Shown: in pieces, positions 23,052 through 50,458 of the stretch
Layout of the letters: every line of letters starts with the position of its first letter
Position numbering within the stretch: position 1 is the stretch's first letter
DNA from: Planctomycetota bacterium
GTDB lineage: Bacteria; Planctomycetota; UBA11346
NCBI GenBank assembly: GCA_038213805.1
Contig: JBBQSO010000012.1
Span: 21,746-85,745 of the forward strand
Direction: 5' to 3'
Length of the DNA: 64,000 nt
Notes under the pieces: model-generated
Told to the model about the DNA's origin: nothing
Seen by the model: only the letters and a program-made list of their open reading frames with translations
The model's database searches: none
Program-made: the position numbers and the translations under genes

Positions 23052-24166
23052 CCAAGATCGCCATCCTCTCCGTATCCGCCGGCGCCGGCCACCTGCGCGC
23101 CGCCGAAGCGCTCAAGACCGCGATCGAGGCGCGCCTGCCCGGCGCCACCGCCACCCACCTCGATGTCATGGAGTTGGTGCCCAAGCTGTTCCGCAAGATC
23201 TACGCGGACAGTTACCTCAAGGTCGTGGACCGCCACCCGGCGCTGTGGGGTTACCTCTACCACACCGCCGACCGCGCCAAGCCCGACGGCACGCTGACGC
23301 GCCTGCGCCAGGCGGTGGAGCGGCTCAATACCCGCGCCTTCGCCAGCCGGCTCGCGGAACTCGCGCCCGACTACGTGATCTGCACGCACTTCCTGCCCGC
23401 GCAGCTGCTCTCACGCATGATCGGCAAGGGCACCTTCACCAAGCCGGTGTGGGTGGTGGTCACCGATTTCGACATCCACACCCTGTGGGTGCACCCGCAC
23501 CTCACCGGGTATTGCGCCGCCGCCGAGGAGATCTCGTGGCGCATGCGCGACCGCGGTCTGCGCGATTCGCGCATCGCCGTCACCGGCATCCCGATCATGC
23601 CGGCGTTCAGCACCTCGCCCGACCGCGCCACCTGCGCCGCCGAGCTCGGCATCGATCCGCGCCGCACCACCCTGCTGATGATGTCGGGTGGTTTCGGCGT
23701 CGGCGCCATCGACCAGCTCGCGGAGCGCCTGCTCGGCATTCCCGGAGATTTCCAAATCGTCGCGCTGGCCGGGCGCAACGCCGAGCTGCTTGAAAAACTG
23801 CGCGCGGTCGGCGCGCGCTTCCCGGGCCGCCTGCACGCGCAAGGCTTCACCCGCACCATCGAGCGCGTCATGGCCTGCGCCGACCTGGCGATCACCAAGC
23901 CCGGTGGCCTGACCAGTTCCGAATGCCTGGCGGTCGGACTGCCCATGGTGGTGGTCTCGCCCATTCCCGGGCAGGAGGAGCGCAACAGCGATTACCTGCT
24001 CGAGAACGGCGCCGCGCTCAAGGCGCACGACGCCGCCGGCCTGGAATACCGCGTGCGCATGCTGCTCGCGGATCCCAAGCGTCTGGCCGCGATGCGCGCC
24101 AACGCCAAACGCATTGGCACCCCCCAGGCCGCCAACAGCGTGCTCGACGCCGTGCTGGGCGCATGA
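23048..24166 (+). CDS. MGDG synthase/UgtP-like diacylglycerol glycosyltransferase (GT28)
   Basis: SAGAGHLRAA, ICTHFLP, VVTDFDIH, TGIPI, ITKPGGLTSSE, PIPGQEERN. Confidence 0.9.
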   Translation: MTKIAILSVSAGAGHLRAAEALKTAIEARLPGATATHLDVMELVPKLFRKIYADSYLKVVDRHPALWGYLYHTADRAKPDGTLTRLRQAVERLNTRAFASRLAELAPDYVICTHFLPAQLLSRMIGKGTFTKPVWVVVTDFDIHTLWVHPHLTGYCAAAEEISWRMRDRGLRDSRIAVTGIPIMPAFSTSPDRATCAAELGIDPRRTTLLMMSGGFGVGAIDQLAERLLGIPGDFQIVALAGRNAELLEKLRAVGARFPGRLHAQGFTRTIERVMACADLAITKPGGLTSSECLAVGLPMVVVSPIPGQEERNSDYLLENGAALKAHDAAGLEYRVRMLLADPKRLAAMRANAKRIGTPQAANSVLDAVLGA

Positions 24167-24705
24167 CGGCTCACACCGCCGCGGCCCCGCTGAAAGCGCC
24201 CGTGCACGCCGCCCTGCTGATCGCCGCGGTCACCGTCGTCGCCTACCTGTTCGCCAACGTCGAGATCCAGATCGAGGGCGCCGCGGGCTGGGCCGCGGGG
24301 CTGCCGGTGTCCTTCCGCATCGACCACCATTGGGCGCTCGACTGGTTCTGGGGCGGCCGCCCGATGACCGGCTACCACGCCTGGGTGTTCAGCTTCATGG
24401 CGCTGGTCTTCCACCTGCCGTTCGCGCTGTTCGGCCGCTGGTCGCTGCGCCTTGAGGCGCGCGTGCTCGGCAGCGTCATGCTGTTCTGGATCATCGAAGA
24501 CGCGCTGTGGTTCGTGTGCAATCCCGCCTTCGGCTGGTCAGCGCTGCGCCCTGGGGCGCCCGGCGAGCCGGGCTGCGCGTGGTGGCACATCCACTGGTTC
24601 CTGGGCGTGCCCACGGATTATTGGACGTTCACCGTGGTGGGTGGGCTGGTGTTGTGGTGGTCGTTCCGGGCGCCGAAGGTGGATGACGCGACGCTGGGCG
24701 CGTAA
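24163..24705 (+). CDS. Hypothetical multi-TM membrane protein
   Basis: ATGA-coupled to the glycosyltransferase; EIQIEGAAGWAAGLP, MTGYH, IIEDALWFVCNP look like conserved family motifs. Confidence 0.75.
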   Translation: MTAHTAAAPLKAPVHAALLIAAVTVVAYLFANVEIQIEGAAGWAAGLPVSFRIDHHWALDWFWGGRPMTGYHAWVFSFMALVFHLPFALFGRWSLRLEARVLGSVMLFWIIEDALWFVCNPAFGWSALRPGAPGEPGCAWWHIHWFLGVPTDYWTFTVVGGLVLWWSFRAPKVDDATLGA

Positions 24706-24787
24706 GACGAGACCATCGCACGCCGACCGCGCGCTGGAATTGAAGAGACGAGGTTCGCGTGGTGAGCTGCGAGGAAGGCATGTCGTT

Positions 24788-24838
24788 CTCGTAGCTCGTA
24801 GCTCGTAGCTCGTAGCTCGTAGCTCGTAGCTCGTAGCT
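24788..24838. repeat. Perfect heptamer tandem repeat (CTCGTAG)x7
   Basis: Counted directly; a complementary GAGCTGCGAG lies about 15 nt upstream. Confidence 0.95.
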
Positions 24839-24990
24839 GGCGCGTAGCGAGAGACAGAACGCGTGATGCTGCCTGCATCCAGGACTTCCGGTTCGGGGTT
24901 TCCGCGCGCGGCCGTCTCATCATGCTCAGCGGCATGCCCCTCCCGATCTCGCCTGACAGCAGACCCGCCCTCCGCATCGCGCCGCATCGG

Positions 24991-27900
24991 ATGCTGCGCG
25001 TCCTGGCCTTTCTGGCCTTGGCCGCCTATGCGCGCACCGCCGAGCCGGCCTGGGCGCCGGAGGAGTTCGAGGCCATCTCCGGTCCGGCCTCACCGCGCGT
25101 GGCGGTGGCGGTGCGATCCGAGGGTGGTCAGTTGCGCGTGGCGGTGGAGGTGGCGAGCTTCGCTGCCGACGGATCCGGAGTCCGCATCCAGCTCGGCCTC
25201 GCCGCGGACGCCACCGTCATCCTCGACGAGCGTGCGGCCCAGGTGGTGCGTGGCGCGAGTCTGACGACCTGCACCTTCGCCACGCCGCTCGCGCCGCTCG
25301 GCGATCTGCGTCGGCTGCGCCTCGGCCTGGCGATAGCGTGGGAGGGCGGACCCGCTGGCGCTGACCGCCAGCGCGAGCGCCTGCGCCACCGCTCCGGCGC
25401 TGCCCATGCCGGCCTCGCCGCCGATCCGCGCGAGTGGCTGCCCTTCGATCTCACGGAGTACGCGCTCGCCGTCGCCGACCGCCGCAACCGCCTCGAGATC
25501 ACCTTCACCCAGCCAGAGGGCGGCAAGGCGACGGTAGTGATCGAGGATGCCGTCAGCGGCCGGCGACTGCGCAATCTGGTCGGCGGGCAGCCATTCGCGG
25601 CCGGCGCGCAGCGCCTGGCCTGGGACGGGCTCGACGACCATGGCGCGGTGGTGCCGCCCGGCACCTACCGCTGGCGCTCTCTGCACCACCCGGGGATCGT
25701 GCCGGAGTACGCGATGAGCTTCGCCAACGGCGACGACACGCTCGCGCAGCTCTCCGGCTGGGGACCCAACCACACCGTCCTCAACGCGGCGACCGCGAGC
25801 GGCGCGTGGACAGTGGTGTCCGCGCCGATGACCGAGGGCGGTGACGCCATCCTCGTGCTCGACGCGCAGGGCCACAAGGTGCGCGGCATGAACGTGCCGC
25901 TCGGCATGGGCATCGCCCGCACCGCTTCGGCGATCTCCGGCGACACGCTGTACGTCGCCAATGACGGTCCGGCCTTCCTCGACCACATCGACGAGCGCGA
26001 TGCGCACGCGGTGGCGCACCTCAAGATCACCCTGGCGCGCTTCGACCTGGCGCAGGGCCGGCTGCTGGAATGGAAGCCGGGTGGCAGCTTCATCGCAGTC
26101 GCCGAGGCGGAGACCCACCCGGCGGAAGACTCCGCGTGGCGCTCAGCGGGTCTGGTTGGTCTGGCCGCGCTCGGCGACCGCCTCTACCTCGCTGACCGGC
26201 GCGGCGGCCGTTTGCTGGTCCTGGATGCGGCGACCGGGGCGCAGAGCGGCGTATTCGCGCTGCCCGCGCTGGCCGGGCTCACGTCCGCCCAGGGCCGGCT
26301 GTACGCGCTGGCCGCGGGCGCGGTGGTTACCATCGATGTGCAGAGCGGCGTCACCACCACCGTGGTGCCGGCGGCGCCGTCGCGCGATCCGGTGGCGCTC
26401 GCCGTCGATGCCGGCGGGCGCATCTACGTCAGCGACGCCGCCAGCCACACCGTGCTGATGTTCGACGCCCGCGGGCAGCCGCTGGGCGCGCTCGGCCGCC
26501 CAGGCGGGCCCTACACCGGCGCCTTCGACCGCGAGCGCATGGTCAACCCGCGCGGGCTCGCGGTGGCCGCCACCGGTTGGCTGTGGGTGACGGAGGAGCG
26601 CGCCGCGCCCAAGCGCATCGTCGCCTGGGACACCGCCACGCGCCGGGTGGTGTGCGAGAAGTTCGGCTCGCCGCCCTACGGCGGCACCGGCGCGGGCGTC
26701 GACCCCGTCGATCCCACGCGCTGGATCGGCCTTGGCGCGCAGTGGCGGATCGACCTCGCCACCCGTACCGCGCAGCCCATCGCCATCGTCGGGCCGGACC
26801 ACCACGAATTCCATTACTCCTACGTACGCGATCACGGCGTCACCTATCTGATCGGCTACGGCCAGGCGACCACCATCGCGCGCGTGAACGGCGACGGCTC
26901 GGCGACGCCGGTGGCGCTGATCGCCTCGGCGCACCGCTTCAGCTTCGCCTGCGACTGGCAACCGCCGGCGGCCTTCGTCACCGCCTTCGCCGCCGCCTAT
27001 CCGGGACGCGCCGGCAAGCACGCCGACAAGGGCCCGGGTTTCGTGTGGAGCGACGCCAACGGCGACGGCGTGATGCAGCCCGGCGAGTTCGACTTCGCGA
27101 CCAGCGCCGAGAGCTTCGCCGGCGCCTACTTCGGCCACGACCAGCATGACCTCACCCTGCGCGTGCCGGTCACCGTCGGCGGGCGCCGCGTGGTGGTCGC
27201 GCTCGCCCCCAGCGGCTTCACCGCCGGCGACGCGCCGCGCTACCCGTCCCTGGCCGCGGCCTGCAGTGCGGGCGTGCCGATCGACCTCCCGGGCAACGAG
27301 GTTGAGACCACCGTCGACCGCTTCGGCGATCTGATCTGCAACGCCGAACCGGAGCTCAAGGCTTTCGCGCCCGATGGCCGGCTGCTGTGGACCCATCCCA
27401 ACCGCTGGGTTGGCGTGCACGGCTCGCACGACGCGCCGTTGCCCGAGACCGGCGTGATGCAGGGGGCGCTTGGCTTCATGGGCACCGCGCCGCTGGATGC
27501 GACCAGCGACGTGTTCGTGATGAACGGCAACCACGGGCGCTACTTCATGCTCACCAGCGACGGGCTCTATGTCGACGAGTTCTTCAAGGACGTGCGCATG
27601 GGCGCGCACCTCGACACCACGCTGGTCGGGGGCGAGGCCTTTGGCGGCTGCTTTGCGCGGGGTGAGCGCGATGGGGTCTATTACCTGCAGGTGGGCGGCT
27701 ACCGCGTCTACCGCATGCGCGGTCTCGACCGCCTGCAGCGCGGCCAGGGTGCCATCACCGTCAGCCCGGCGCAGGCGATCGCCGCCGAACGCGCCATGGC
27801 CGCGCACGGCGCGATCGCCGCCAAGCCGCACGCGGCCATCATTCCGCTTGTCGCCCAGGCCCCAGCCCTGCCGGGCGAGGACCACGAGTGGCCCGCGCCG

Positions 27901-28521
27901 GCCGCGGCCTGGGACCGTTCCGGGCGTTTCCCGGTGCGCGTGCGCGCCGCGCACGACGGGCGCATGCTGTATCTGCGCTGGGAGGTCGCCGACGATAGCC
28001 CCTGGGTCAATCGTGGCGGCGATTGGACGCTGCTGTTCAAGAGCGGCGATTCCGTCGACCTGCAGCTCGGCACCGATGCCGCCGCCAATCCCGCGCGCAG
28101 CGGGCCGGTGCCGGGCGACCTGCGCCTGCTCATTGCGCCCTTCCAGGGCAAGGACATCGCCGTGCTCTACCGCCACCGCCTGCCCGGCGCGACTGAACCG
28201 GTGACCTTCACCAGTCCGTGGCGTGCCGAGCGCGTGGACGAGGTGCGCCGGCTCGACAGCGCGCGCATCGCCGTCACCGTCCAGGGCGGTGGCTACCGGG
28301 TGTCCGTTGCGATCCCGCTCGCCGATCTCGGCCTCGATGCGGTTGCCGGGCGCACCGTCAAAGCCGACTTCGGGGTGATCTACGGCGATCCGGAAGGGCG
28401 CATCGACATGCTGCGCTCGTACTGGGCGAATCCATCCACCGGCCTCGTCAACGATGTGCCGGGCGAAATCATGCTGACGCCTGCCGCATGGGGTACGGCG
28501 ACTTTCGCGAGTGCACCATGA
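24991..28521 (+). CDS. Large secreted protein: FlgD-like Ig domain, beta-propeller/NHL repeats, C-terminal CBM9/DOMON-like domain
   Basis: Signal peptide; RLRNLV...WDGLDDHGAVVPPGTYRW (FlgD Ig); PVALAVDAGGRIYVSD and NPRGLAV (NHL); AHDGRMLYLRWEVADDSP...GDSVDLQL...VAIPLADLG (CBM9-like). Confidence 0.8.
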   Translation: MLRVLAFLALAAYARTAEPAWAPEEFEAISGPASPRVAVAVRSEGGQLRVAVEVASFAADGSGVRIQLGLAADATVILDERAAQVVRGASLTTCTFATPLAPLGDLRRLRLGLAIAWEGGPAGADRQRERLRHRSGAAHAGLAADPREWLPFDLTEYALAVADRRNRLEITFTQPEGGKATVVIEDAVSGRRLRNLVGGQPFAAGAQRLAWDGLDDHGAVVPPGTYRWRSLHHPGIVPEYAMSFANGDDTLAQLSGWGPNHTVLNAATASGAWTVVSAPMTEGGDAILVLDAQGHKVRGMNVPLGMGIARTASAISGDTLYVANDGPAFLDHIDERDAHAVAHLKITLARFDLAQGRLLEWKPGGSFIAVAEAETHPAEDSAWRSAGLVGLAALGDRLYLADRRGGRLLVLDAATGAQSGVFALPALAGLTSAQGRLYALAAGAVVTIDVQSGVTTTVVPAAPSRDPVALAVDAGGRIYVSDAASHTVLMFDARGQPLGALGRPGGPYTGAFDRERMVNPRGLAVAATGWLWVTEERAAPKRIVAWDTATRRVVCEKFGSPPYGGTGAGVDPVDPTRWIGLGAQWRIDLATRTAQPIAIVGPDHHEFHYSYVRDHGVTYLIGYGQATTIARVNGDGSATPVALIASAHRFSFACDWQPPAAFVTAFAAAYPGRAGKHADKGPGFVWSDANGDGVMQPGEFDFATSAESFAGAYFGHDQHDLTLRVPVTVGGRRVVVALAPSGFTAGDAPRYPSLAAACSAGVPIDLPGNEVETTVDRFGDLICNAEPELKAFAPDGRLLWTHPNRWVGVHGSHDAPLPETGVMQGALGFMGTAPLDATSDVFVMNGNHGRYFMLTSDGLYVDEFFKDVRMGAHLDTTLVGGEAFGGCFARGERDGVYYLQVGGYRVYRMRGLDRLQRGQGAITVSPAQAIAAERAMAAHGAIAAKPHAAIIPLVAQAPALPGEDHEWPAPAAAWDRSGRFPVRVRAAHDGRMLYLRWEVADDSPWVNRGGDWTLLFKSGDSVDLQLGTDAAANPARSGPVPGDLRLLIAPFQGKDIAVLYRHRLPGATEPVTFTSPWRAERVDEVRRLDSARIAVTVQGGGYRVSVAIPLADLGLDAVAGRTVKADFGVIYGDPEGRIDMLRSYWANPSTGLVNDVPGEIMLTPAAWGTATFASAP

Positions 28522-30230
28522 GCGCCGCACGACTGCTGCTACGCCTGGCGCTGCTCGCCCTGCCGCTGGCGGCGGCCAGGGCAGAAACACTGGTCTGCGC
28601 CGGCGTGCTCGGTAATTCCGGCGAGCAAGGTCGCGACCTGGCGCGCTGCGCAGCGGCGCCGGCGCGCGGCCTGGGAGTGGTCTGCGACCGCTTCGGCACA
28701 TTGTGGGACCGCGCCGGTTCCGGCGTGCTCGCCCGCTACGCCGTCGATGGACGCATGCTCGCCCAGTATCGCATCCCCGCCGAGAACGATCGCCGCGACC
28801 AGCTCGCCCTGGTTGGCGACACCCTGGTGCTGCTCATCAATGGTCGCCTGCACACCCTGGCGATCACCGCGCTGCCGGACAGCGCGGCCACGCCGATGAC
28901 GATCGAGGCGACCTGCCTGTCGCCTTCCGCGTGGCACGGCACGGTCGCCATCGCCACCAAGCAGGGCCTCGCCACCTGGGCGGTCGCTGAAGAGGCGGCA
29001 CCGCGCCCGGTCGCCGCGCTGGCCGGAATCGAGGCGGTCGAGATCGGCGCGGACGGCGCGCTCTACGCCATGGTCGAGTGGCAGGTGCACAAGTTCGTGG
29101 CCGGCGCCGAGATCAGCGATGGCTGGCCGCGCGCCGCGCCCGGCGAGCGGCCGCAGCTCCTCGACGGCTGGTGGTATGGCCACGCCTGGAACAGCACCAT
29201 CAAGCGCTGCGACGCCGACCTCGCACCGCAGCCGGGCGTGGTGCTGGGCGGCGCCTCGGGTTCGTTCATCGGCCACCTCGACCAGAGCGCCGACCTGGTC
29301 AACGGTCGCGGTCTAGCGCGGCTGGATCGCGACCTGTTCGCGGTCTCGGGCTTCACCGGCACGCTGCAGCTGCTGGCCTGGAACGAAAATGCGCGGCAGT
29401 TCGCCGTGGTGCGGCGCATCGCCGCGCTGCCGCGCTGTCCGGCGCTGGGACTCGACCGCGCCGGGGACGTCTGGCAGTGGAACGGCGCCTGGCGCTGGGA
29501 CGACCGGCCCGACGCGCCGCTGCGCGACGGCGTCACGCCACCGGAGGAGCTCGGCCAAGCGGTGATGCTGGATGACGACGTGATGGTCGCGCCCGGCGTG
29601 ATGTGGGGCAAGCCGACGCTGATGCACGGCCGCCTCGATGGCGAGGTCGCGGTCGAGCGCATCGAGGAACATTGCACGCTGCGCCGCAATCTGGTCGGCA
29701 GCGCCACTTACCGCGATGGCGATCACCTGGTGCTGCTGACCATCGACGCTGCTGGCGCCGGCCACGCCTTCGCCATCGATCCGGTGGGCCATTTCCGCGG
29801 CGATCTCGGGGCGGTCGAACTCGCCACCGCGACGCCGGTGGTGGCGTGGACCGCGTTGGCCATGGCTGGCGCCGATGCGCTGCTCGCCACGGGCGACGGC
29901 TGTGTGCTGGAGTTCGCGCGCGCTGGCGGAGGCTGGCACGAAACGCGACGCTGGCGTTCCTGGGGCGCCGGTGAGACGGAGCACTTCGGCGCGGTGATCC
30001 ACATCAGTAGCGATGCGCACACCCTGGCCGTCTCCGACCGCGACCGCCACCGCGTGCTCTGCTTCGCTACCGGCGGTGGCAGCCCGCGTGCGACCTTCGG
30101 CCGCTGCGACGAGGCTGGCGCCGACCTCGCCACGCTGAGCGCGCCGACCACCGTCGCGGTGCGTGGCGAGCGCGTCGTGGTCTTCGATGCCGGCAACCAG
30201 CGCTTGGTGAAGCTGCTCAGCGCGCCGTGA
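28518..30230 (+). CDS. Secreted beta-propeller-like hypothetical protein
   Basis: ATGA-coupled to the previous gene; signal peptide; C-terminal NHL-like LAVSDRDRHRVL and VVVFDAGNQRLVKL. Confidence 0.75.
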   Translation: MSAARLLLRLALLALPLAAARAETLVCAGVLGNSGEQGRDLARCAAAPARGLGVVCDRFGTLWDRAGSGVLARYAVDGRMLAQYRIPAENDRRDQLALVGDTLVLLINGRLHTLAITALPDSAATPMTIEATCLSPSAWHGTVAIATKQGLATWAVAEEAAPRPVAALAGIEAVEIGADGALYAMVEWQVHKFVAGAEISDGWPRAAPGERPQLLDGWWYGHAWNSTIKRCDADLAPQPGVVLGGASGSFIGHLDQSADLVNGRGLARLDRDLFAVSGFTGTLQLLAWNENARQFAVVRRIAALPRCPALGLDRAGDVWQWNGAWRWDDRPDAPLRDGVTPPEELGQAVMLDDDVMVAPGVMWGKPTLMHGRLDGEVAVERIEEHCTLRRNLVGSATYRDGDHLVLLTIDAAGAGHAFAIDPVGHFRGDLGAVELATATPVVAWTALAMAGADALLATGDGCVLEFARAGGGWHETRRWRSWGAGETEHFGAVIHISSDAHTLAVSDRDRHRVLCFATGGGSPRATFGRCDEAGADLATLSAPTTVAVRGERVVVFDAGNQRLVKLLSAP

Positions 30231-30248
30231 GCCACGAGTTTCGCATCA

Positions 30249-30294
30249 CGAGCTGCGAGTGACGGCATTCGCGTCTCGCGTCTCGTAGCTCGCG
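30249..30294. repeat. CTCGTAG-family inverted repeat upstream of polB
   Basis: CGAGCTGCGAG ... CTCGCGTCTCGTAGCTCGCG. Confidence 0.7.
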
Positions 30295-30364
30295 ACCCGT
30301 CGCACCCGGACGGGGAAGGCCATGGCTTCCCGTCGCTCCCCGCTATGGTCGCGCCCCACGCGCG

Positions 30365-32368
30365 ATGGCAGATGATCCGACCATCTTCGATCTGCTCGGA
30401 CCCGGGCAGCCGGAGCGGCCTGTGCCGGTCCCGGACGTAGCCGATGGCGGCGAGCTGACTGATGCGCTGATCGCTGCGGCGGTGGCCGCGCTGCGCGCGC
30501 GGGGGCCGCTGCTGCCCCCGGCGGATATCCCGCCCGCGCCTCACGGCCAGCGCGTCTGGGTCTATGACACCGAGGTCTTCCCCAACCTGGTGCTGCACGT
30601 CTTCACCGACGGGCGCAGCACCGAGGTCTTCCATCAGGGGACCTGGGACGCGCTTCGGACCTTCGTCAGCGATCCGGGCAAAGTCCTGGCCGGCTTCAAC
30701 AGCTCGGGCTACGACGACCCGGTGCTGCGCCGCATCCTCGCCCGACCGCACCCCACGTTGGCGGATATCTTTGCGCTCTCGGGCGAGATCATCGGCGGCG
30801 AGCTGCCGCGTGAGCTGCGCTGGGGGCCGGTGCCGTGGGCGCACGGCATCGATGTGCTGCAGCTGCTCAATGGCCGCGGTTCGCTCAAGGAGTGGGAGTG
30901 CCGCCTGGGGCTCGACCTGGTCGCGGAGTCGCCGTGCGATTTCGCCGCGCCGCTGCCGGCTGGCGCCATCGGCGAGGTGCTGCGCTACTGCCTCAACGAC
31001 GTCGCGGCGACCGTGCGGCTGCTGCTCGCCAACTGGGACCTGGTGGCGATGCGCGCGGTGCTGCAGGGCATCTATGGCCAATCCGACACCATCTATGCCA
31101 CCACCGAGGCCGGCATCGCCGAGGCGACCCTGGCCGACCTGGCGCGCCGCGCCAGCGGGGTGACGCGCAGCCAGCTCAAGGCCGCGGCCGCCGCCAATCC
31201 CGACAACCGCCCGCGCACGTGGCCGCTGGATGGATTGATCGCGCCGCGCGTCACTTTCGTCACCCCGCCCTTCTGCACCCTGCTTGCGGCGGTACGGGCC
31301 GGGTCGCTGGTGATCGGCGCGCGCGGTGGCGCGCTCGACCTGCCGCAGCTCCCCGGTCAGGTGTTCACGCACGACGGCACGCTCTATCAGCTCGGCACCG
31401 GCGGCCTGCACTCGCTCGACCAGCCCGGCTCGTGGCGCGCCGACACGGACACCGCCCTCATCGATCTCGACGTGACCAGCTACTATCCGTCGCTGATCAT
31501 CAACGAGGGCTGGCACCCGCGCCACTATGGTCCGGCCTTCGTTGAGCACCTGCGCGGCATGCGCGACCGCCGCGTCGCCGCCAAGAACGCCGGCGACAAG
31601 CGCACCGCCACCGCGCTCAAGATCGTCATCAACTCAATCTACGGCAAGCTCAACGACGCCTACAGCAGCATCCGCTCGGTGCCCGACGCCTTCCGCGTCA
31701 CGCTCAATGGCCAGCTGCTGCTGCTCATGCTCATCGAGGGGCTGTCCAGCGCCGGCGCCGAGGTGCTGAGCGCCAACACCGACGGCGTGACGGTACGCGT
31801 ACCGCGCGTGCAGCTCGCGGCGGTCGAGGCCGCAGCCGCCGCCTGGGAACGCGCCAGCGCGCTCACCCTGGAGCGCACGTCCTATCGCGCCCTGCACCGC
31901 CGCGACGTGAACAACTACCTGGCCATCACCGCCGCCGGCGAGCTCAAGACCCGCGGCGCCTTCGGCGATGGCGCTAAGGGCGATGGCGCGGTGGTGCGCG
32001 AGGCCGCGGTGGCCTGGCTGGTCGAGGGCATCGAACCGTCCGAGACCGTGGCCCGCTGCAGCGACGTGCGCGCCTTCCTGTTCTACCAGCGTACGCGCAG
32101 CGACGCGCTGCTGGTGCACGGCGAGCGCGCACTCGGCCGCATCGCGCGCTGGTATGTCGGCTTCGGCGGCCCCACCCTGCGCCGGCGCAGCCTCGCCGAA
32201 GGCACCCTCACCACCGTCGCCCATGGCCACCACGCGCGCCTCGCCATGGATATCGCCGGCTGGACGATGGCCGACCTCACCACCCTTGACCGCAGCGCCT
32301 ATGTCGCCGAGGCGTGGCGCCTGATCAACGCGGTGGCGCCGCGCGAGGGGCTGGTGGGAGACGGATGA
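30365..32368 (+). CDS. Phage-type family B DNA polymerase with 3'-5' exonuclease domain
   Basis: ExoI YDTE, ExoII GFNSSGYDD, ExoIII YCLND; GTGGLHS; motif A DLDVTSYYPSLI; motif B KIVINSIYGK; motif C ANTDG; RRDVNNY; KTRG. Confidence 0.9.
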   Translation: MADDPTIFDLLGPGQPERPVPVPDVADGGELTDALIAAAVAALRARGPLLPPADIPPAPHGQRVWVYDTEVFPNLVLHVFTDGRSTEVFHQGTWDALRTFVSDPGKVLAGFNSSGYDDPVLRRILARPHPTLADIFALSGEIIGGELPRELRWGPVPWAHGIDVLQLLNGRGSLKEWECRLGLDLVAESPCDFAAPLPAGAIGEVLRYCLNDVAATVRLLLANWDLVAMRAVLQGIYGQSDTIYATTEAGIAEATLADLARRASGVTRSQLKAAAAANPDNRPRTWPLDGLIAPRVTFVTPPFCTLLAAVRAGSLVIGARGGALDLPQLPGQVFTHDGTLYQLGTGGLHSLDQPGSWRADTDTALIDLDVTSYYPSLIINEGWHPRHYGPAFVEHLRGMRDRRVAAKNAGDKRTATALKIVINSIYGKLNDAYSSIRSVPDAFRVTLNGQLLLLMLIEGLSSAGAEVLSANTDGVTVRVPRVQLAAVEAAAAAWERASALTLERTSYRALHRRDVNNYLAITAAGELKTRGAFGDGAKGDGAVVREAAVAWLVEGIEPSETVARCSDVRAFLFYQRTRSDALLVHGERALGRIARWYVGFGGPTLRRRSLAEGTLTTVAHGHHARLAMDIAGWTMADLTTLDRSAYVAEAWRLINAVAPREGLVGDG

Positions 32369-32404
32369 GCTGCGAGTCGCGAGGCTCGTAGCTCGAAGCT
32401 CGCG
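32367..32404. repeat. CTCGTAG-family inverted repeat downstream of polB
   Basis: GAGCTGCGAGTCGCGAG-G-CTCGTAGCTCGAAGCTCGCG, starting within the polB stop codon. Confidence 0.7.
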
Positions 32405-32463
32405 CGCTCCGGACCCACGAGAATCCCTTCCCACCCCATCCACCTTCCTGATCATCCCGCTGC

Positions 32464-32868
32464 ATGCGCGCCACCCTGCCCGCCTTCCGCGTCTGTCGCA
32501 GCCCCATCCACGGTCGCGGTGTCTTCGCCGCCACGCGCATCCCGCGCCGCATGAAGCTCGGCGAGGTCTCCGGCGAGCTGTGCCGTCTGCCACAGGCGCG
32601 CCAGGCCATGCAGGCCCGCAGCGTCATCCATCTTGTCGAGCTCAGCCGGCGCTGGGCACTGGACTGCTCGCGTGGCAATCATTTCCGCCACCTCAACCAT
32701 TCCTGCCAGGCGAACTGCTACCTGCGCATCTGGCGCCGCCGTGTCGAAGTCTACAGCCGCGGCGTCATTGCCCGTGACCACGAGTTGACCGTCGATTACC
32801 GCAGCACCCAGCATCCCGGCGGCATGGTGTGCGGCTGCGGCCGCCCTGGGTGCCGTTCGCTGCTGTGA
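32464..32868 (+). CDS. SET-domain protein-lysine methyltransferase with post-SET motif
   Basis: SPIHGRGVFA, FRHLNHSCQANC, ELTVDY, CGCGRPGCR. Confidence 0.9.
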   Translation: MRATLPAFRVCRSPIHGRGVFAATRIPRRMKLGEVSGELCRLPQARQAMQARSVIHLVELSRRWALDCSRGNHFRHLNHSCQANCYLRIWRRRVEVYSRGVIARDHELTVDYRSTQHPGGMVCGCGRPGCRSLL

Positions 32869-32872
32869 CGCC

Positions 32873-32897
32873 GCGCCCCTGAATCATCCAGGGGCGC
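32873..32897. terminator. GC-rich hairpin between convergent genes
   Basis: GCGCCCCTG-AATCATC-CAGGGGCGC, perfect 9-bp stem; no U-tract. Confidence 0.55.
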
Positions 32898-32917
32898 CCG
32901 TCCGCGTGCTCGCCGCT

Positions 32918-35653
32918 TCAGCGACGATCCGTCAGCATGGCTAGCAGCGGCGCCACTTCCTCCGCTGCGAAGGCCCGGGCCGACGGCTTCCGCATGCCGA
33001 CTGCCGCCGGAGCGACCAGTTCGATCTTCCAGCGCTGCGCGGCGGTACCGTTGTCGGTGTGCTGCTTGACGTTGATCCCGTCGGCGGTCCCAGAGCCATC
33101 CACGTCCAGGCAGTCGCCGCTGCACTGCGCCGTCAGCCGGTACCAGCCGCCGCCCATGTCAGCGATCTTCCAGCGCTGCGCGGTGCCGCCATTGTCCGTC
33201 CACTGCTGGACATTCGTATCGTTGGCACTGCTCGCGCCGTTCACGTCCAGGCATTTGCCACTGCACTGCGCGGTGAGCTTCCACCAGCCGCCGCCCTGGT
33301 CGTCGAGCCGCCAGCGCTGCGCCGCCGAGCCATTGCTGGTCCACTGCTGGACGTTGGTGCCGTCCGACGTCCCGGCGGCGTTCACATCCAGGCACTTGCC
33401 GCTGCACTGCGCGGTCAGCGTATAGGTCGCGCCAGAGGCCAGACCCGTCGTCTGGATGCGGTCGATCCGCCAACGCTGGGCATCTGTGCCGTTGTCCGGC
33501 GCCTGATTGATCGGTGTGCCGTTGGTGGTGGCGGAATGCAGCACGTCCAGGCACATGCCACTGACCTTGGCGATCACCTTCATGGTGCCGTCACCGCGGT
33601 CGACGATCATCCAGCGCTGCGCGGCGCTGCCGTTGTCGGCCGCCTGGTCGACGCGCGTGCCGTCGCTCAGCCCGCCGCCCTGCACGTCGACGCGCAGGCC
33701 ATTCGCCTGGGAGGTGATGCGGTAGCCATCGCCCAGGTCCTCGATCTTCCAGCGCTGCGCATTGGTGCCGTTGTCGGTATACTGCTGCAGCACGGTCCCG
33801 GCCGCGCCGGTCGAGCCCGGCACGTCCAGACACTTGCCACTGGCCTGTGAGGTGAAGCGGTAGACGCCGCCCGAGGTGATCGCCGCGATGCGCGGGTACA
33901 CATCGACGAAGGTCGTGCCGGTCAGTCCGGCGCTGTCCGTGACGGTAAGGTGCACGCGGTACCACTGCACGGGATCGGTCTCGCCGACCGCGGGTACGGT
34001 GAAGCTGCCGGTCGCGCCGGACAGCGGGCCCAGGAAGGGATGGGTATGGACCTCGTGGTGGAAGACGATGGTCCAGCTGAGCGCGCTGGCCGGCAGCGCG
34101 CCGTCCACCGCGTCCTGGCCCGTCCCGGCGTAGGCGATGGTCGCGCCGTCGCTGAACAGGGAGAAATTCCGGGGCGCGGTGATGGTCGCCACCGGTGCGG
34201 TGCGGTCGCGCACTGTCAGCACCGCCTCGGCGCTGGTCGCGCTGCCCGCAGCGTTGCGCACCACCGCGCGGAAGCGCGCGCCATCGTCGGCGAGGGCGGC
34301 GGTAATCGCATAGGTCGCCCCGGTCGCCCCGGCGATATCGACCCCGCCACGCTGCCATTGGAAGCTGAGCGGCGCCGCGCCCGAGGCCCCGACGGTGAAC
34401 GACGCGCGGCCGCCGACGCCGGTGGTGGCCGGCTGCGGCTGCGCCGAGATGCTCGGCGCCTGGCTGCCCGTGTAGGTGATGCGGACCAGGCGGCCGCTCG
34501 CCGACGAGGTGTTGTCCGCGCTCGAGCCGCGTGCCAGGTACCACAGCGCGCCATCTGGCGCCGCGCGCAGGTCGATCGGATTGGCGACGCCGCGCGCGAA
34601 GACCGTGGCCGCGCCCTGGTCGGTTGCGTCGCCGCGCAGCGCCTGCGGATCGATGAAGCGGATCCAGCCGTTGGAGTAGTCGCTGAAGAAGTACTTGCCG
34701 ACGTAGCCCGCGGGGAACATCGCGGTCGCGGGATCGTAGAACGTCCCGCCGGTGATGGCCGAGCCACGGGTGTCGCCGCTGCCGTGCGGGTAGGTGAAGA
34801 CCGGGTCGCGATAGCGGCTGTCGTGCAGCACGCCGTCGGTGGCGCCGCCGGTGAACCCGTAGTTCGCGCCGGCCACACCCAGGTCGATCTCCTCCCAGCT
34901 GTTCTCACCGACGTCGTTGATGAAGTATCGGCCCGTTCCGGGTTGGAATGCGGCGGTGAAGGGGTTGCGCAGGCCCAGCGCCCAGATCGCCTGGTTGCGA
35001 CCGCTGGTCTGGCCGACGAAGGGGTTGTCGGACGGGATCGAGCCGTCGGCGTTGAGGCGCAGCACCTTGCCCAGCACGTTGGCCAGGCTCTGGTCGTTGG
35101 CCGAGCTAGCGTTGTTGCCGGTCGCGACGTAGAGCTTGCCGTCGGGCCCGAAGTGGATCGCGCCACCGTTGTGGTTGCCCGCGCTCGACAGGTTGTCGCA
35201 CTCGAAGATCACCGTCTCGGCGCCCGCCACGTCGCCGTTCAGGGTGAAGCGGCTGACGCGGTTGTGCGTCGCCGGCGTGCGCGCGGTGTAGTAGACGTAG
35301 ATGCGGTGATTGTTGGCGAAGTCGGGATCGCAGGTGACGCCATCCAGACCGCGCTCGTTGAAGTTGTCCACCTGACCGCTGATGTCGAAGGCGGGAGTGG
35401 TCAGCAGCGCATTGCTCTTCACCACGCGCAACCGTCCGACCTTCTCGCAGACCAGCACGCGCCCGTCGGGCAGCACCTCCATGGCAGTCGGGTCCAGGCC
35501 ACTGGCGACCTGGACCTCGGCGAAGCCGCTCGGCAGGGTCGCCGCCGGGGCCATGGGGGTGGCGATCAGGGCAAGCAGGGTGAGCGCGCCGGCCGACAGC
35601 GCGGCCAGCCAGCCGCGGCACGGCCGCGGCGTGGGGTTGATGATGCGACGCAT
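32918..35653 (-). CDS. Secreted glucose/sorbosone dehydrogenase-type (PQQ-dependent-like) protein with Ig/PKD-like and two ricin-B lectin domains
   Basis: NERGLDG, NHNGGAIHFGPDGKLY, WALGLRNPF, NDVGENSWEE; Ig segment APLSFQWQ; six KCLDV...QxW-type subrepeats. Confidence 0.88.
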   Translation of the reverse strand: MRRIINPTPRPCRGWLAALSAGALTLLALIATPMAPAATLPSGFAEVQVASGLDPTAMEVLPDGRVLVCEKVGRLRVVKSNALLTTPAFDISGQVDNFNERGLDGVTCDPDFANNHRIYVYYTARTPATHNRVSRFTLNGDVAGAETVIFECDNLSSAGNHNGGAIHFGPDGKLYVATGNNASSANDQSLANVLGKVLRLNADGSIPSDNPFVGQTSGRNQAIWALGLRNPFTAAFQPGTGRYFINDVGENSWEEIDLGVAGANYGFTGGATDGVLHDSRYRDPVFTYPHGSGDTRGSAITGGTFYDPATAMFPAGYVGKYFFSDYSNGWIRFIDPQALRGDATDQGAATVFARGVANPIDLRAAPDGALWYLARGSSADNTSSASGRLVRITYTGSQAPSISAQPQPATTGVGGRASFTVGASGAAPLSFQWQRGGVDIAGATGATYAITAALADDGARFRAVVRNAAGSATSAEAVLTVRDRTAPVATITAPRNFSLFSDGATIAYAGTGQDAVDGALPASALSWTIVFHHEVHTHPFLGPLSGATGSFTVPAVGETDPVQWYRVHLTVTDSAGLTGTTFVDVYPRIAAITSGGVYRFTSQASGKCLDVPGSTGAAGTVLQQYTDNGTNAQRWKIEDLGDGYRITSQANGLRVDVQGGGLSDGTRVDQAADNGSAAQRWMIVDRGDGTMKVIAKVSGMCLDVLHSATTNGTPINQAPDNGTDAQRWRIDRIQTTGLASGATYTLTAQCSGKCLDVNAAGTSDGTNVQQWTSNGSAAQRWRLDDQGGGWWKLTAQCSGKCLDVNGASSANDTNVQQWTDNGGTAQRWKIADMGGGWYRLTAQCSGDCLDVDGSGTADGINVKQHTDNGTAAQRWKIELVAPAAVGMRKPSARAFAAEEVAPLLAMLTDRR

Positions 35654-35953
35654 GGGGTGTTCCTGCTGGGTGAAGCGGAAGAAGCGGCAGTGGGTGCCGC
35701 ATTCGTATGGACCACGGACGTGGCGCATGTCGGTCTTTTATGTCGATACCGATCTGGCGACTATGCAGGGTCTTTGGCAGGGTTGGTCAGGAGCTGAAGC
35801 CCGCGTACGAGATGCCCCGGGTGGTCACGCATAAATTCAGCATCCGCCTGCCGCGCTCCTGGACGACGGTCGACGTCCGGCGGTTCGCGAAAGCCGCGCA
35901 GTTCATCTGGCATGCGCCGCAGTGTCGAGCGACATGCCCGAACAACCCGTATT

Positions 35954-35969
35954 GAAAAAACGTTTTTTC
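35954..35969. promoter_or_regulatory. Perfect 16-bp palindrome, LacI-family operator-like
   Basis: GAAAAAACGTTTTTTC in a divergent promoter region; extremely AT-rich for this genome. Confidence 0.65.
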
Positions 35970-36007
35970 TAGACAACGCAAGCGGGCGACCACGGTACGA
36001 ACTCGTG

Positions 36008-36021
36008 TGGAAGCGCTTTCA
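36008..36021. promoter_or_regulatory. LacI/cre-like operator
   Basis: TGGAAGCGCTTTCA near-palindrome about 40 nt upstream of the ATG at 36060. Confidence 0.6.
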
Positions 36022-36059
36022 GACCACCTCCTGATCGACCACCTCACCCTGGGATCACC

Positions 36060-39000
36060 ATGCCGCTCGCCCGCCCCATCAGCATCCGCCTCCTATCCCT
36101 GCTTGCCCCCGCCCTGCTCTCGGGCGCTTTGCTCGGTGCCCAGGACCAGCCTGTGCCAGGCTCCCTGCCGGTGCTGCTGATCGGCGGGCAGAACAACCAC
36201 GACTGGAAGCTGACCAACGCCTTCCTGATGGACCTCTTCCACGCCGCCCCGGGCCTCGCCGCGGTCGAGGACGACACGCCGCCCGCCGACGCGCCACCCG
36301 CAGCCTGGGACGCCTGGCACCCGCAGTTCACCAAGTACCGCTGCGTGGTCCTCGACTACAACGGCCAGATGTGGCCCGACGCGGTGAAGCAGGACTTCGA
36401 GGCCTACATCGCCGGCGGCGGCGGCGCGCTGGTGCTGCACGCCTCCAACAACAGCTTCACCGGCTGGACCGAGTACGAGAAGATGGTCGGCATGCTGTGG
36501 CGCGACCAGAAGTACGGCGCCAGCCTTTACGTCGACGCGCAGGGCACGGTCGTGCGCGAAGAAGCCGGCCAGGGCCGCGGCATGGGCCACGGCGCGCAGT
36601 ACGACTGGCAGCTCACCATCCGCGACGCCGTCCATCCCATCACCGCGGGCATGCCCGACCACTGGCTGCACATCAAGGATGAGCTCTACCACGGCCAGCG
36701 CGGGCCCGCACAGGACGTGCACATCCTGATGACGGCCCACTCCGATCCCGGCAAGGGCGGCACCGGCAAGGACGAGCCGATCGTGTGGTGGGTGCCCTAT
36801 GGCAAGGGCAAGGTGGTGACCGATGTGATGGGCCACGTCGGTGAGACCGCGACCCTGTCCTGCGTCGGTTACCAGACCACCGTGCTGCGCGCGATCGAAT
36901 GGCTGGCCACCGGCGCCTGCGCCACGCCCATCCCCAAGGACTTTCCCACGCCCGAGCGCACCACGCAGCGCTATCCCGGTGGTCCGGCCAAGTCGCTCGA
37001 TCCCGAGATGACGCCCGCGGAGTCGCTCGCGCGCTTCAAGTTGCCGCCCGGCTACCACATCGAGCTGGTCGCCAGCGATCCCACCATCATCAACCCGGTG
37101 GCGTGCAGCTGGGACGGCGACGGCCGGCTGTACGTCGCGGAGATGCGCACGTACATGCTCGACGCCGACGCCAAGGGCGAGAACGAGCCGCGCTCGCGCG
37201 TCACCCGCCTGGTCGACTCCAAGGGCACCGGCGTCTACGACCAGGCCACCGTCTTCGCCGACGGCCTGGTGCTGCCGCGCATGGTCCTCGCCCTCGGCAA
37301 GCGCGTGATCATCGCCGAGACCTCCACCGGCAAGTTCGTCTCGTACGGTGACAAGGACGGCGACGGCGTCGCCGATGACAAGGTCGAGGTCTTCGACGGC
37401 GGCCGCAGCAACGGCAACCTCGAGCACCAGGACAGCGCCCTGCAGTGGAGCCTGGACAACCGCCTCTACACCGCGCAGGTCGGCAGCCGGCGCTTCCGCA
37501 TCGCCGCCGACGGCCACTGGGATTCAGAGCCGCTCTACGGTCGCGGCTCGCAGTGGGGCCTGGCGATCGACGATCTCGGCCGCACCTACAGTTCGGCTGC
37601 GGGCGGCGAAAACGGCGCCTTCGGTTTCCAGCAGCTGCCCGCGTATGGCGCGCTCGAACTCGAGGGCGAGCAAGGCGAGGGCTTCACCGAGGTCTACCCG
37701 CGCCTGCAGACGGTCGACGTGCAGGGCGGTCTCGGCCGCGTCCATCCACTGCGCGGCACGCTCAACCATCTCACCGGCTGCGCCGGCCAGTCGATCTTCC
37801 GTGGCGACCGCCTGCCCGCCGACCTCGCGGGCGACTACATCCTGCCCGAGCCGGTCGGCCGCCTGGTGCGCCGCGCCAAGATCCAGGTCCAGGACGGCAA
37901 ACGCGTGCTGGTCAACGCCTACGACCACGACGAGTTCATCACCTCGACCGATCCCTCGTTCCGCCCGGTGTGGAGCGCGACCGGTCCCGACGGCTGCCTC
38001 TACATCTGCGACCTGCACCACGGCATCATCCAGGAGGGCGCCTGGACCAACCCGGGTTCCTACCTGCGCGGCATCATCGATCGCGACGGGCATGCGAAGT
38101 ATGTGGGCCATGGCCGCATCTACCGCGTCGTCGCAGACGGCTTCAAACCCGGCCCGCAGCCGCAGCTGCTGGAGCGCAAGGCGTCGGAGCTGGTGCAATA
38201 CCTGGCCCACCCCAACGGCTGGTGGCGCGACACCGCGCAGCAGCTGATCGTGCTGTCCGGCGACAAGAGCGTGGTGCCGGCGCTGCAGCAGCTCGCGCGC
38301 TCGGGCTCCACGCCGCTCGGCCGCATGCACGCGCTGTGGGCGCTCGATGGCTTGGGCGCCAGCGACCACGACCTGCTTGTCGCCGCCTGCAAGGATGCGG
38401 ACTGGCGCGTGCGCTGCGCCGCGGTGCGCATTGGCGAGGCACTGCTTATCAAGGGCGACGCGGCCTTCCTCGCCGCGCTCACTCCGCTCGGCGCCGACCC
38501 GGTCATCGACGTGGTGGTGCAGGTCGTCGACTCGCTGCGCTTCGTCACCGACCCGCAGGGCAAACTGCTGCTCGCGGCGATCGCGGCCCGCCACATCGGC
38601 AACGAGATCGTCACCGCCTCGGCGCAGCAGAGCCTGCGCTACGACCCCGCGCACCCCACGCCGATCAACGTCAAGCTCGACGCCAAGAGCCTGGCCCTAG
38701 CGAAGAAGGGCTACGAGCACTACACGCAACTGTGCTTCGCCTGCCACGGTCTCGACGGCAAGGGCGTGACCAGCAACGACGGCCAGCGCATGGCCCCGCC
38801 GTTGTCCGGCTCGGCCCGCGTGCAGGGCAGCGCCGACGCGCTGACGCGCATCGTCCTCGACGGCCTGACCGGCGAGATCGACGGCAAGACCTACGTCGGC
38901 CTGATGGTGCCGATGAAGGCCAACGACGACCAGTGGCTGGCCGAGGTGCTGACCTACGTGCGCAGCAGCTTCGGCAACAGCGCCCCGGCGATCACCGCCG

Positions 39001-39494: not shown

Positions 39495-39637
39495 CGCCGC
39501 GGGGAGACGGCTCGTCGTCGGGCTATTGCGAGCTGCGAGCTGTGAGGCGCAAAGCGTTGCCGGTGCGCGCCTCGATGACCTGGTGGCACGCCGGCAGTCG
39601 TCTTGCCTGGACGGTGCAGGATGGCTAGGGTGCGGGG

Positions 39638-40426
39638 ATGGTCCTGACCCTCGCGATCACACTCGGGCTCGCACTGTGCGCGGCCGTGGTCGGATGGCGT
39701 GCGCCCCGGTCGCGGGCGCTGGGTGTGGGGGCGGTCGTGCTGGCACTCGTGGCGACCGCCAACGTCGCCTACTACGCGCACCGCTGCGATGATCTGCCGG
39801 GATACTTCCGCTATCGCACGTGGTGGTGGGCCGACCACGTGCCGGCGCTGTCCGGGTTCCTGGTCGGGTACTGCCTGAAGACCCTGGACCGCACTGCGCG
39901 ACTGGCGTCGACCGCGGCGTCCGCGCTGCTCGCGCTCGCCGCCATCGTCGGCCCGTGGGCCAAACCGCTGCTCCTGCCGCTCGATCAGCTCGACCCCGTC
40001 GGCCACTGGCAGGATGGCATCTGCATCCAGACCACCTCCAGCACCTGCGGACCGTGCGCGTTGACCAACCTGCTTCACCGGCATGGCATCGTCACCAGCG
40101 AGCGCGAATTGGCGTTCGAGGCCATGACCAGCGGCACCAGCACCGAACTCTGGTACCTGGCGCGCTGTGCCGAACGCCGCGGGTTCACCACGTCATTCGT
40201 GGCCGGCGATCAGGCGCTGCGACCCGATGCCATCATTGGCAAGGGGCTCGGCGGGACCGGTCATTTCATCGCAATCACCGCCGGCGCCGACGGCACGCTG
40301 GCCATCGCTGATTCCGTCGCCGGCGCCAGCCACGTCCCGCTCGCCAAGGCGCAGAAGCTGCTTGGGACGCCCGGCATGTCGTTGCTGGTGCATGGACTCC
40401 CGCCGCTGGTCCCGACTCCGCCGTGA
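39638..40426 (+). CDS. Membrane-anchored peptidase C39-like protein
   Basis: Four N-terminal TM segments; QTTSSTCGPCAL (Gln/Cys), GHF, IAD. Confidence 0.75.
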   Translation: MVLTLAITLGLALCAAVVGWRAPRSRALGVGAVVLALVATANVAYYAHRCDDLPGYFRYRTWWWADHVPALSGFLVGYCLKTLDRTARLASTAASALLALAAIVGPWAKPLLLPLDQLDPVGHWQDGICIQTTSSTCGPCALTNLLHRHGIVTSERELAFEAMTSGTSTELWYLARCAERRGFTTSFVAGDQALRPDAIIGKGLGGTGHFIAITAGADGTLAIADSVAGASHVPLAKAQKLLGTPGMSLLVHGLPPLVPTPP

Positions 40427-40556
40427 CGTGGATGCGCGCCATCCGCCATGCGGCCAAACGCCGCGGAAGATCGGCGTCGATGCGGGAAATACCATGACAG
40501 TCGGGAGTCTTGCCGTGGGTGCTTGACAGACTCGTTACTCACCCCCAGCTCCACGC

Positions 40557-41998: not shown

Positions 41999-42003
41999 GG
42001 CGG

Positions 42004-49378: not shown

Positions 49379-50454
<1,076 letters not shown>

Positions 50455-50458
<4 letters not shown>

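Follow-up and report, generated by a model that had tools for sequence, protein, structure and literature searches.

A stand-alone phage-type DNA polymerase gene in planctomycete chromosomes, with a putative sliding-clamp motif on an N-terminal tail

Why would a bacterial chromosome carry a lone DNA polymerase gene of a phage type? Family B DNA polymerases (PolBs) of bacteria are rare accessory enzymes. The question is raised by a 64,000-nucleotide stretch of DNA from a Planctomycetota bacterium (NCBI GenBank assembly GCA_038213805.1, contig JBBQSO010000012.1, positions 21,746 to 85,745), referred to here as the window, in which a polB-like gene occupies 30365..32368 of the plus strand. An earlier note, made from the sequence alone, had described this gene as an orphan phage-type PolB, inferring that a viral polymerase had been domesticated to serve the host, and as the best candidate in the window for an undescribed system. 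As set out below, the gene is intact, catalytically conserved, chromosomal, partly syntenic, and under purifying selection, and it belongs to a monophyletic group with a tail motif of its own. To the reading that it is an exapted phage polymerase, now serving as a clamp-tethered proofreading accessory polymerase and an analogue of Pol II of independent viral origin, we give somewhat more credence than doubt.

A phage-type polymerase in a chromosomal setting

The reading frame opens with ATG and encodes 667 amino acids free of internal stops. That it contains all of the exonuclease and PolB motifs, as the earlier note had stated, was borne out by alignments of 23 and 85 relatives, on which conservation was judged. 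The 3′-5′ exonuclease domain (approximately residues 60 to 240; 30542..31084, + strand) is recognized by invariant motif columns, with ExoI (D68/E70), ExoII (N112, D117/D118), and ExoIII (Y208/D212) invariant or nearly so. The polymerase domain (approximately residues 340 to 667; 31382..32365, +) contains motif A (31463–31492, +), in which D367/D369 are followed by SYYPS at residues 372 to 376, and motif B (31619–31648, +), with K419, N423, G427, and K428, all again invariant or nearly so. Motif C (SANTDG; 31769–31786, +) has an N471-T472-D473-G474 core that is invariant in the 85 sequences. The strictly invariant catalytic set includes D117, D369, S372/Y374/P375, K419/N423/G427/K428, and N471 to G474, and the stretches GTGGLH (344–349) and RRDVNNY (512–518) are also conserved. 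By composition, the gene fits its surroundings. The G+C content is about 71% across the whole window and unbroken at polB, while G+C at third codon positions (GC3), by which the genes of the window were called, is 0.89 in polB, inside the neighbor range of 0.82 to 0.97; the codon style is thus like that of the neighbors, as had been noticed before.

To which family does the protein belong? Its best full-length profile is the phage family phrog_1252, annotated “DNA polymerase” (E = 7.8e-117), which aligns residues 57 to 658 with profile positions 47 to 652 of 663. The Pfam family PF00136 gives a weak match that is rightly placed in the polymerase domain (residues 387 to 486; E = 0.035), Pfam DNA_pol_B_2 gives no match, and a sequence search of the PDB returned just weak matches around motifs B and C at E = 0.07 or worse. 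The AlphaFold2 model built on the 85-sequence alignment has a predicted local distance difference test (pLDDT) score of 92.7 and a predicted template modeling score of 0.90. Foldseek searches with this model retrieve archaeal PolBs, Pol alpha, and E. coli Pol II (E about 1e-14 to 2e-12; query template modeling scores of 0.4 to 0.5), and all 48 PDB rows listed (ranks 1 to 50, two omitted) are RNA/DNA-primed PolBs. In the model, just 8 residues of the folded core precede ExoI, so the canonical PolB N-terminal domain is missing.

Of 50,697 phage records searched by tblastn, 828 were matched, every one at less than 60% identity and the best at 42%. That best match is in a circular 40-kb Caudoviricetes genome, where the polymerase stands beside genes for a VirE-type primase-helicase, a helicase, terminase, portal, and capsid. 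The NTDG motif marks a phage PolB subgroup named PolIIphages (PMC3201878), in keeping with the earlier note's use of it as a phage signature; the crAss-like example given there was not confirmed, the matches listed being to Rhizobium phages, Seurat/CAjan-like coliphages, and others. The phage NTDG PolBs (phrog_1252; for example, those of Rhizobium phages RHEph04-06, Seurat/CAjan-like coliphages, and Caudoviricetes sp. MW202897) share the exonuclease and polymerase motifs of the window protein, NTDG included, at 30 to 42% identity, and like it have no N-terminal domain ahead of the exonuclease. They are found in phages together with primase-helicase, helicase, and structural genes, or in prophages, whereas the window gene is alone and chromosomal and encodes an N-terminal tail that they lack. 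By sequence, then, the window gene descends from the phage NTDG PolB family; by context, it is not a phage gene.

Could it instead be a cellular enzyme misread as viral, either Pol II (group G1) or a member of another described bacterial PolB group? Recent surveys of bacterial PolBs recognize Pol II, a PolB2-derived group, and an epsilon-like group, besides minor groups that are poorly described (PMC7544198, PMC12926913). Five of these minor groups, from a 2026 survey that sampled complete genomes, have no N-terminal domain, and one of them may correspond to the wider family to which the window protein belongs (PMC12926913). The Foldseek match to E. coli Pol II counts on the same side, as does a weak, partial match to the NCBIfam Pol II equivalog over motifs A to C (residues 387 to 481; E = 2.4e-6). 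That match, however, reaches 26.1 bits against a cutoff of 570. The N-terminal domain of E. coli Pol II is absent from the window protein, ExoII has GFN where the PolII-like clade is said to be marked by GWN (PMC7544198), motif C is NTDG, unlike that of Pol II, and the best full-length profile is that of a phage family. Since the cutoff is missed by a wide margin, the domain is absent, and both motifs differ, the protein is not a member of the Pol II family, although it would work like Pol II, and we consider an origin in a described cellular group improbable.

How widespread is the gene? A collection of 5.8 billion proteins was searched, and the best 120 hits were analyzed. Intact relatives at 51 to 93% identity and 98 to 100% query coverage (P0002–P0014 and P0016–P0019) lead the list, and the two close relatives that are named are proteins from metagenome-assembled genomes (MAGs) of Planctomycetes/Planctomycetota. 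P0015 is a fragment of 598 amino acids (89% of the query). The remaining top hits are at most 50% identical and begin without the first ~55 residues, and several hits outside the group are fused to PriCT/VapE/DUF5906 primase-helicase modules. An exhaustive search of 1.84 billion representatives clustered at 50% identity yielded 4160 relatives at E ≤ 1e-3, of which 1501 also passed E ≤ 1e-30. Of the 150 best of the 4160, P0016 (59%) alone reached at least 50% identity, and the chromosomal clade is thus a tiny branch of an extensive family. A maximum-likelihood tree was built from 112 of the 120 best hits, the 8 rows of fewer than 560 amino acids being dropped. It places the 18 sequences that bear the tail motif, together with P0015, in one clade with SH-aLRT support of 100 and a stem of 0.53. 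This clade lies within polymerases of phages or mobile elements, in a group with P0048, the primase-helicase fusions P0030–P0035, and a sister group, P0023–P0029. Because the tree is a quick search with a midpoint root and many rows of deviant composition, only the strongly supported clade is used here.

What surrounds the gene in other genomes? A scan of species-representative genomes found 35 loci, of which 3 are close (all in Planctomycetota MAGs) and 32 are distant (24 to 33% identity). The locus at 93% identity (L001) has the order unk670-polB-SET-GSDH/ricin-DUF7133-MORN in common with the window, and the one at 84% (L003) shares FloA-esterase-unk619-LysR-unk450-MGDG synthase-polB-SET-GSDH/ricin-DUF7133-C39-MORN. 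In the third (L002; 69%), polB has the gene of a Zn-dependent dehydrogenase on one side and that of an unknown protein on the other, and genes for a prepilin-type protein, for LpxR, and for a response regulator are nearby. In all four loci inspected, counting the window, polB is intact and in an ordinary chromosomal setting, and no phage genes were found there. Prophage-type modules were present in all three distant loci examined of the 32 (L004, L005, and L010), comprising an integrase, a CI-like repressor or methyltransferases, a helicase, a primase, and a RecE-like exonuclease. In two of these, both Firmicute prophages, the polymerase is fused at its C terminus to an Erf-like single-strand annealing domain (phrog_155; L005 9992–12499 and L010 9998–12526), and the RecE-like exonuclease gene follows the fusion.

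Rates of substitution, estimated by the Nei-Gojobori method on codon alignments, indicate how the gene has been transmitted. Between the window and L001, polB has a ratio of nonsynonymous to synonymous substitutions (dN/dS) of 0.19 and a dS of 0.185, compared with neighbor dS values of 0.198 to 0.306; between the window and L003, the ratio is 0.25 and dS is 0.373, with neighbors at 0.250 to 0.419. The pair formed by the window and L002, which have no shared neighbors, gives 0.24 at a dS of 0.884. The other three polB pairs lie at 0.25 to 0.29, with dS against L002 of 0.79 to 0.88 overall, and neighboring host genes have dN/dS values of 0.11 to 0.30 (10 comparisons). Divergence of polB has thus kept pace with that of its neighbors, under like constraint, as expected of a functional gene inherited vertically.

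This evidence bears directly on the simplest alternative, that polB is the last undecayed gene of a prophage and has no host function. The wider family is indeed one of phages and prophages, and there are indels between relatives at this place, with two large genes absent from L003 and a spacer of variable length downstream of polB. An inert gene, however, would not be expected to stay intact in all 18 full-length members across 51 to 93% identity, nor to keep its low dN/dS even at the divergence of L002, its invariant catalytic residues, and a fully host-like GC3, nor to gain a new conserved N-terminal motif on the stem of the clade. We regard an inert remnant as very improbable. The suggestion of the earlier note that a viral polymerase was domesticated for a host role is thus supported, and its closest homologues proved to be neither in prophages nor decaying in the four loci.

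Might the gene still be selfish, as part of an unrecognized minimal mobile or extrachromosomal element or as the replicase of a plasmid or element encoded elsewhere? The nearest relatives outside the clade are primase-helicase/PolB fusions typical of self-replicating elements, the context of polB differs between L002 and the window, and inverted repeats bracket the gene. On the other side, a Pfam scan of 43 candidate open reading frames (ORFs) over the window found ordinary chromosomal content and no integrase, transposase, helicase, primase, terminase, or capsid domain. A comparison of 18 ORFs with PHROGs, all of the Pfam-negative ones included, gave just a LysR-family match and Ig/ricin-domain matches in the GSDH/ricin protein. 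No recombinase, Cas1, terminal protein, or primase was seen within 30 kb on each side of polB in the window or in the L001 to L003 loci. The absence of phage or mobile context, which had been asserted from the sequence, therefore holds under these scans. A tRNA/att-type integration site was also considered and rejected, the 64-kb window having no tRNA gene. There is a single polB copy in the window, and its position between conserved host genes has been kept in three genomes, with host-like dS. The piPolBs of pipolins and the PolBs of casposons are likewise PolBs in bacterial chromosomes; these, however, form a protein-primed/primer-independent cluster inside mobile elements (PMC7544198), whereas the window protein has an RNA/DNA-primed fold and no element genes.

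The bracketing repeats deserve a closer look. A GC-rich inverted repeat (GAGCTGCGAG ... CTCGTAGCTC) follows the stop of the preceding gene at 30250..30291, and a downstream copy at 32367..32401 overlaps the polB stop and is conserved in L001 and L003. The motif, in which heptamers of GAGCTGCGAG face CTCGTAG units, also occurs at three other intergenic sites (~15920, 24764–24838, and 39527–39546), with 7.3 tandem copies at 24788–24838, and an exact 10-mer of it has 4 occurrences in the window, all intergenic. The pair was accordingly rejected as the ends of a mobile element. A repeat that recurs in this way is probably a genome-wide terminator-like one, and it looks like a lineage-specific terminator or an element akin to repetitive extragenic palindromes. 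Its presence on both sides suggests that polB is transcribed on its own. Taken with the rest, these findings make continued life as a selfish element unlikely.

A clade-specific tail and the sliding clamp

What sets the clade apart from its phage-like relatives? It has an extension of ~55 residues at the N terminus, the phage-like relatives starting at about residue 55 to 60. The extension begins with a putative β-clamp docking motif (residues 1 to 11, MADDPTIFDLL; 30365..30397, +), which is identified by conservation, disorder, and a complex model. Within MADDPTIFDL, the residues TIFD (T6, I7, F8, and D9) are invariant in 20 clade sequences. A clade-specific linker and helix follow (residues 12 to 59; 30398..30541, +). 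The linker varies in length and sequence and is disordered to about residue 30, after which a helix (residues 33 to 45) packs on the core. In the AlphaFold2 model, pLDDT is below 50 over residues 1 to 24, as in a disordered segment, and above 90 from about residue 31. The codons of the motif show synonymous differences between the window and L003, which indicates that the tail is translated and constrained.

The basal members of the clade read QRTIF or QPTIF at this place, which fits the β-clamp consensus QxxLF (PMC12926913). When the 120 hits were scanned with a loose clamp-motif pattern, every one of the 18 full-length clade members had the N-terminal motif, no other hit had it at its N terminus, and a C-terminal motif was found in none of 19 clade members. 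Outside the clade, 9 of 101 hits have QxxLF-like C termini (QQSLF, QLSFL, QQSIFDII, QRTLF, and QTSLF), including 6 of the 7 members of the sister group. Sister-group members P0024–P0029 (46 to 49% identity) are of the same family and the same length and also have a clamp-type motif. In them, however, it is C terminal (QQSLF, QLSFL, or QQSIFDII) and there is no N-terminal tail, whereas in the window clade it is N terminal. The sister-group ending QSIFDII strikingly resembles the PTIFDLI of the clade. The basal members P0016–P0019 end in ...SLPLQ, ...DLPL, ...DLLCW, and ...QPLIEIPD, endings that may represent either a decayed second clamp-type motif or what is left of an ancestral one.

Can such a tail bind a clamp? 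Residues 1 to 40, with the clade alignment, were modeled in complex with E. coli DnaN as a stand-in β-clamp. The model scored 0.63 (runs of 0.63, 0.66, and 0.62), whereas the best of three controls scored 0.06; 116 of 157 solved complexes attained this mark of 0.63, as did 2 of 215 mismatched pairs. Agreement of contacts among the runs was at least 62%, and the pLDDT of the partner was at least 48. Tail residues 3 to 8 and 10 to 12 are predicted to contact clamp residues 172, 174 to 177, 242 to 243, 246 to 247, 344, 346, 360, and 362 to 365. According to PMC3716654, the hydrophobic pocket of the clamp is formed by Val247, Leu177, Val360, Pro242, and Met362, Gly174 is a backbone hydrogen-bond partner, and the carbonyls of Met362 and Pro363 hold the conserved Gln of the motif. 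All five of the pocket residues are in the predicted interface, as are Gly174 and Pro363. The complex model supports binding of the tail to the clamp; it does not show it.

Taken one step further, these comparisons would mean that this lineage independently reinvented a “Pol II” from a phage replicase and that, after capture, the polymerase was connected to the host replisome as its clamp motif moved from the C terminus, where the sister group has it, to a new flexible N-terminal tether. We hold this fuller version tentatively, leaning a little against it.

A predicted role and its competitors

How might the polymerase have come to be where it is, and what would it do there? In the reading of an exapted, clamp-tethered polymerase, a replicative PolB of the NTDG/PolIIphages type would have entered the ancestor from which a narrow group of planctomycetes descends and would then have lost its phage partners (primase-helicase, helicase, and recombination genes). 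Since then it would have passed down by vertical inheritance, standing alone on the chromosome and kept by purifying selection. The N-terminal tail would be a QxxLF-type β-clamp motif on a flexible tether, taking the place of the C-terminal QQSLF-type motif of the sister group, and through it the host sliding clamp would recruit the polymerase to primer ends made by host enzymes. Dependence on host-supplied ends is expected because no primase or helicase partner accompanies the gene. As both the polymerase and the 3′-5′ exonuclease sites are intact, the product would be an accurate accessory polymerase, one that might fill gaps, restart replication, or extend past lesions.

Pol II of E. coli offers the obvious comparison, being likewise a stand-alone chromosomal accessory PolB with intact proofreading. 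It binds the β-clamp through QLGLF (PMC3716654), and the Pol II and G3 groups of PolBs combine intact exonuclease and polymerase sites with a β-clamp motif (PMC12926913). The clamp motif of Pol II is C terminal, whereas that of the window protein is putatively N terminal, and the window protein is of viral origin. The evidence gathered here favors clamp-dependent repair or gap filling as the cellular role. Of the roles listed by the earlier note, repair is thus the one that gains; mutagenesis loses ground, since intact exonuclease motifs imply proofreading and argue against a mutator, and defence is taken up below.

Several points weigh against this reading. (i) The crown members of the clade, including the window, read DPTIF or EPTIF and so have Asp or Glu in place of the conserved Gln. 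(ii) The clamp that was modeled is a heterologous stand-in from E. coli, not a planctomycete one, and as many clamp-peptide complexes have been solved, a passing model shows likeness to known clamp peptides and not binding to the bacterium's own clamp. (iii) N-terminal clamp motifs are unusual for polymerases. (iv) Genomic context covers only four of the 19 members of the clade (the window, L001, L003, and L002). (v) No regulatory site of a DNA damage type was identified upstream of polB. (vi) The activity, the clamp binding, and the cellular role of the polymerase are all predictions.

What about a part in anti-phage defence, with the polymerase competing for or corrupting phage replication, either alone or with a neighbor? 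Domesticated phage genes are often defensive. The neighbor in question is a SET-domain gene (32464..32868, +; Pfam SET, E = 3.5e-13), lysine methyltransferase-like, which lies downstream of polB in three of the four loci (L001 3247–3648 and L003 13042–13443), has dN/dS values of 0.12 to 0.30, and is absent from L002. In L002, a gene two genes upstream of polB (914–1963, − strand) matches the PADLOC candidate PDC-S60 (E = 8e-31), with a weak DUF4062 match. In PADLOC-DB v2, however, there is no match for polB, SET, or 6 other window neighbors, and the window neighborhood is metabolic, envelope related, and housekeeping in content, with no defence island. Vertical inheritance with host-like dS is also unlike the usual turnover of defence genes. 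An operon or functional link between polB and SET was considered and found unsupported: SET is missing in L002, a terminator-like hairpin lies between the two genes, and the spacer varies (96 bp in the window, ~370 bp in L001, and ~1 kb in L003). We give a defensive role little credence.

How new, then, is an exapted, clamp-using polymerase? Some of the picture is already known, namely the phage NTDG subgroup (PMC3201878) and, in family A, a phage-related precedent, PolA3 (PMC12926913). PolA3 is likewise a phage-related proofreading polymerase in bacterial genomes, but it is scattered across lineages and lies in prophage regions (PMC12926913), whereas the window clade is of family B, outside prophages, and vertically inherited. 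The literature searched, in which few subscription journals were represented and some sources only in part, described neither a planctomycete clade of NTDG-type PolBs that is inherited vertically outside prophages nor a PolB with a clamp motif at its N terminus. Within that literature, then, the clade does not correspond to an already described chromosomal PolB clade. To call it an undescribed system, as the earlier note had, is nonetheless an overstatement, since the gene stands by itself as a monocistronic unit and its one recurrent neighbor, SET, is absent from L002. We would rather see in it a clamp-using accessory PolB of bacteria that was reached by viral exaptation, not a new kind of system.

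If the reading is right, the clade would be a clear example of a replication enzyme brought from viral to cellular use by exaptation, host-like over substantial divergence. A relocated clamp-docking motif would be a simple, testable molecular signature of that exaptation. If the fuller version holds as well, a viral replicase would have become a host genome-maintenance enzyme with the adaptive step visible in the sequence, and the N-terminal tether would alter the geometry of a family B polymerase on the β-clamp. A compact, 667-amino-acid proofreading PolB that has no N-terminal domain and might work with a bacterial clamp could also be of interest to enzymologists.

The surroundings of the gene

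The region just upstream of polB (30305..30364, +; ~60 bp) is the presumed promoter or 5′ leader of a monocistronic unit and is conserved among the window, L001, and L003. No sigma-70 promoter or intrinsic terminator was found in a scan of 30100–32600, and no Rfam family was found in 22000–42000 of the window. The window also encodes sugar oxidoreductases, a 3-keto-disaccharide hydrolase, an FGGY kinase, AraA, LysR and AraC regulators, the GSDH/ricin protein, a DUF7133/ThuA/cytochrome c protein, a BamA-OmpH-LpxD-LpxC/FabZ series, a hybrid histidine kinase, and PPK2.

In the window, polB is separated from the MGDG synthase gene by two large genes (24922–30230, +), whose products, apparently secreted, are 1199 amino acids (FlgD-Ig/NHL matches) and 670 amino acids (no family) in length. 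Both are missing at this place in L003, and L001 has at least the gene for the 670-amino-acid product; the region, which adjoins polB, is an indel hotspot. On the other side of polB, the polB-SET spacer contains ~270 bp of lower-GC sequence in L001 (~2990–3230) and ~1 kb in L003 (~12020–13000) that is missing from the window, with no Pfam-recognizable ORF in either. Beyond the spacer in L003 (13528–20270), the orthologues of the GSDH/ricin and DUF7133 genes are split over several frames, although the sequence is otherwise 80 to 94% identical and polB itself is intact; these breaks are probably assembly frameshifts rather than real pseudogenes.

Three smaller observations concern other parts of these loci. 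In the window, the stretch separating the convergent esterase and unk619 genes holds two octamer arrays that face one another, one at 18418–18455 (GAAGTCCG, ~4.8 copies) and one at 18548–18581 (the inverse, GACTTCCG, ~4.4 copies). In L003 (2634–3262), three copies of the ends of the esterase and unk619 genes are seen, which points to a tandem duplication at that place. Finally, downstream of BamA-OmpH-LpxD in the window, LpxC and FabZ are encoded in a single reading frame, as an LpxC-FabZ fusion (49699–51747, +).

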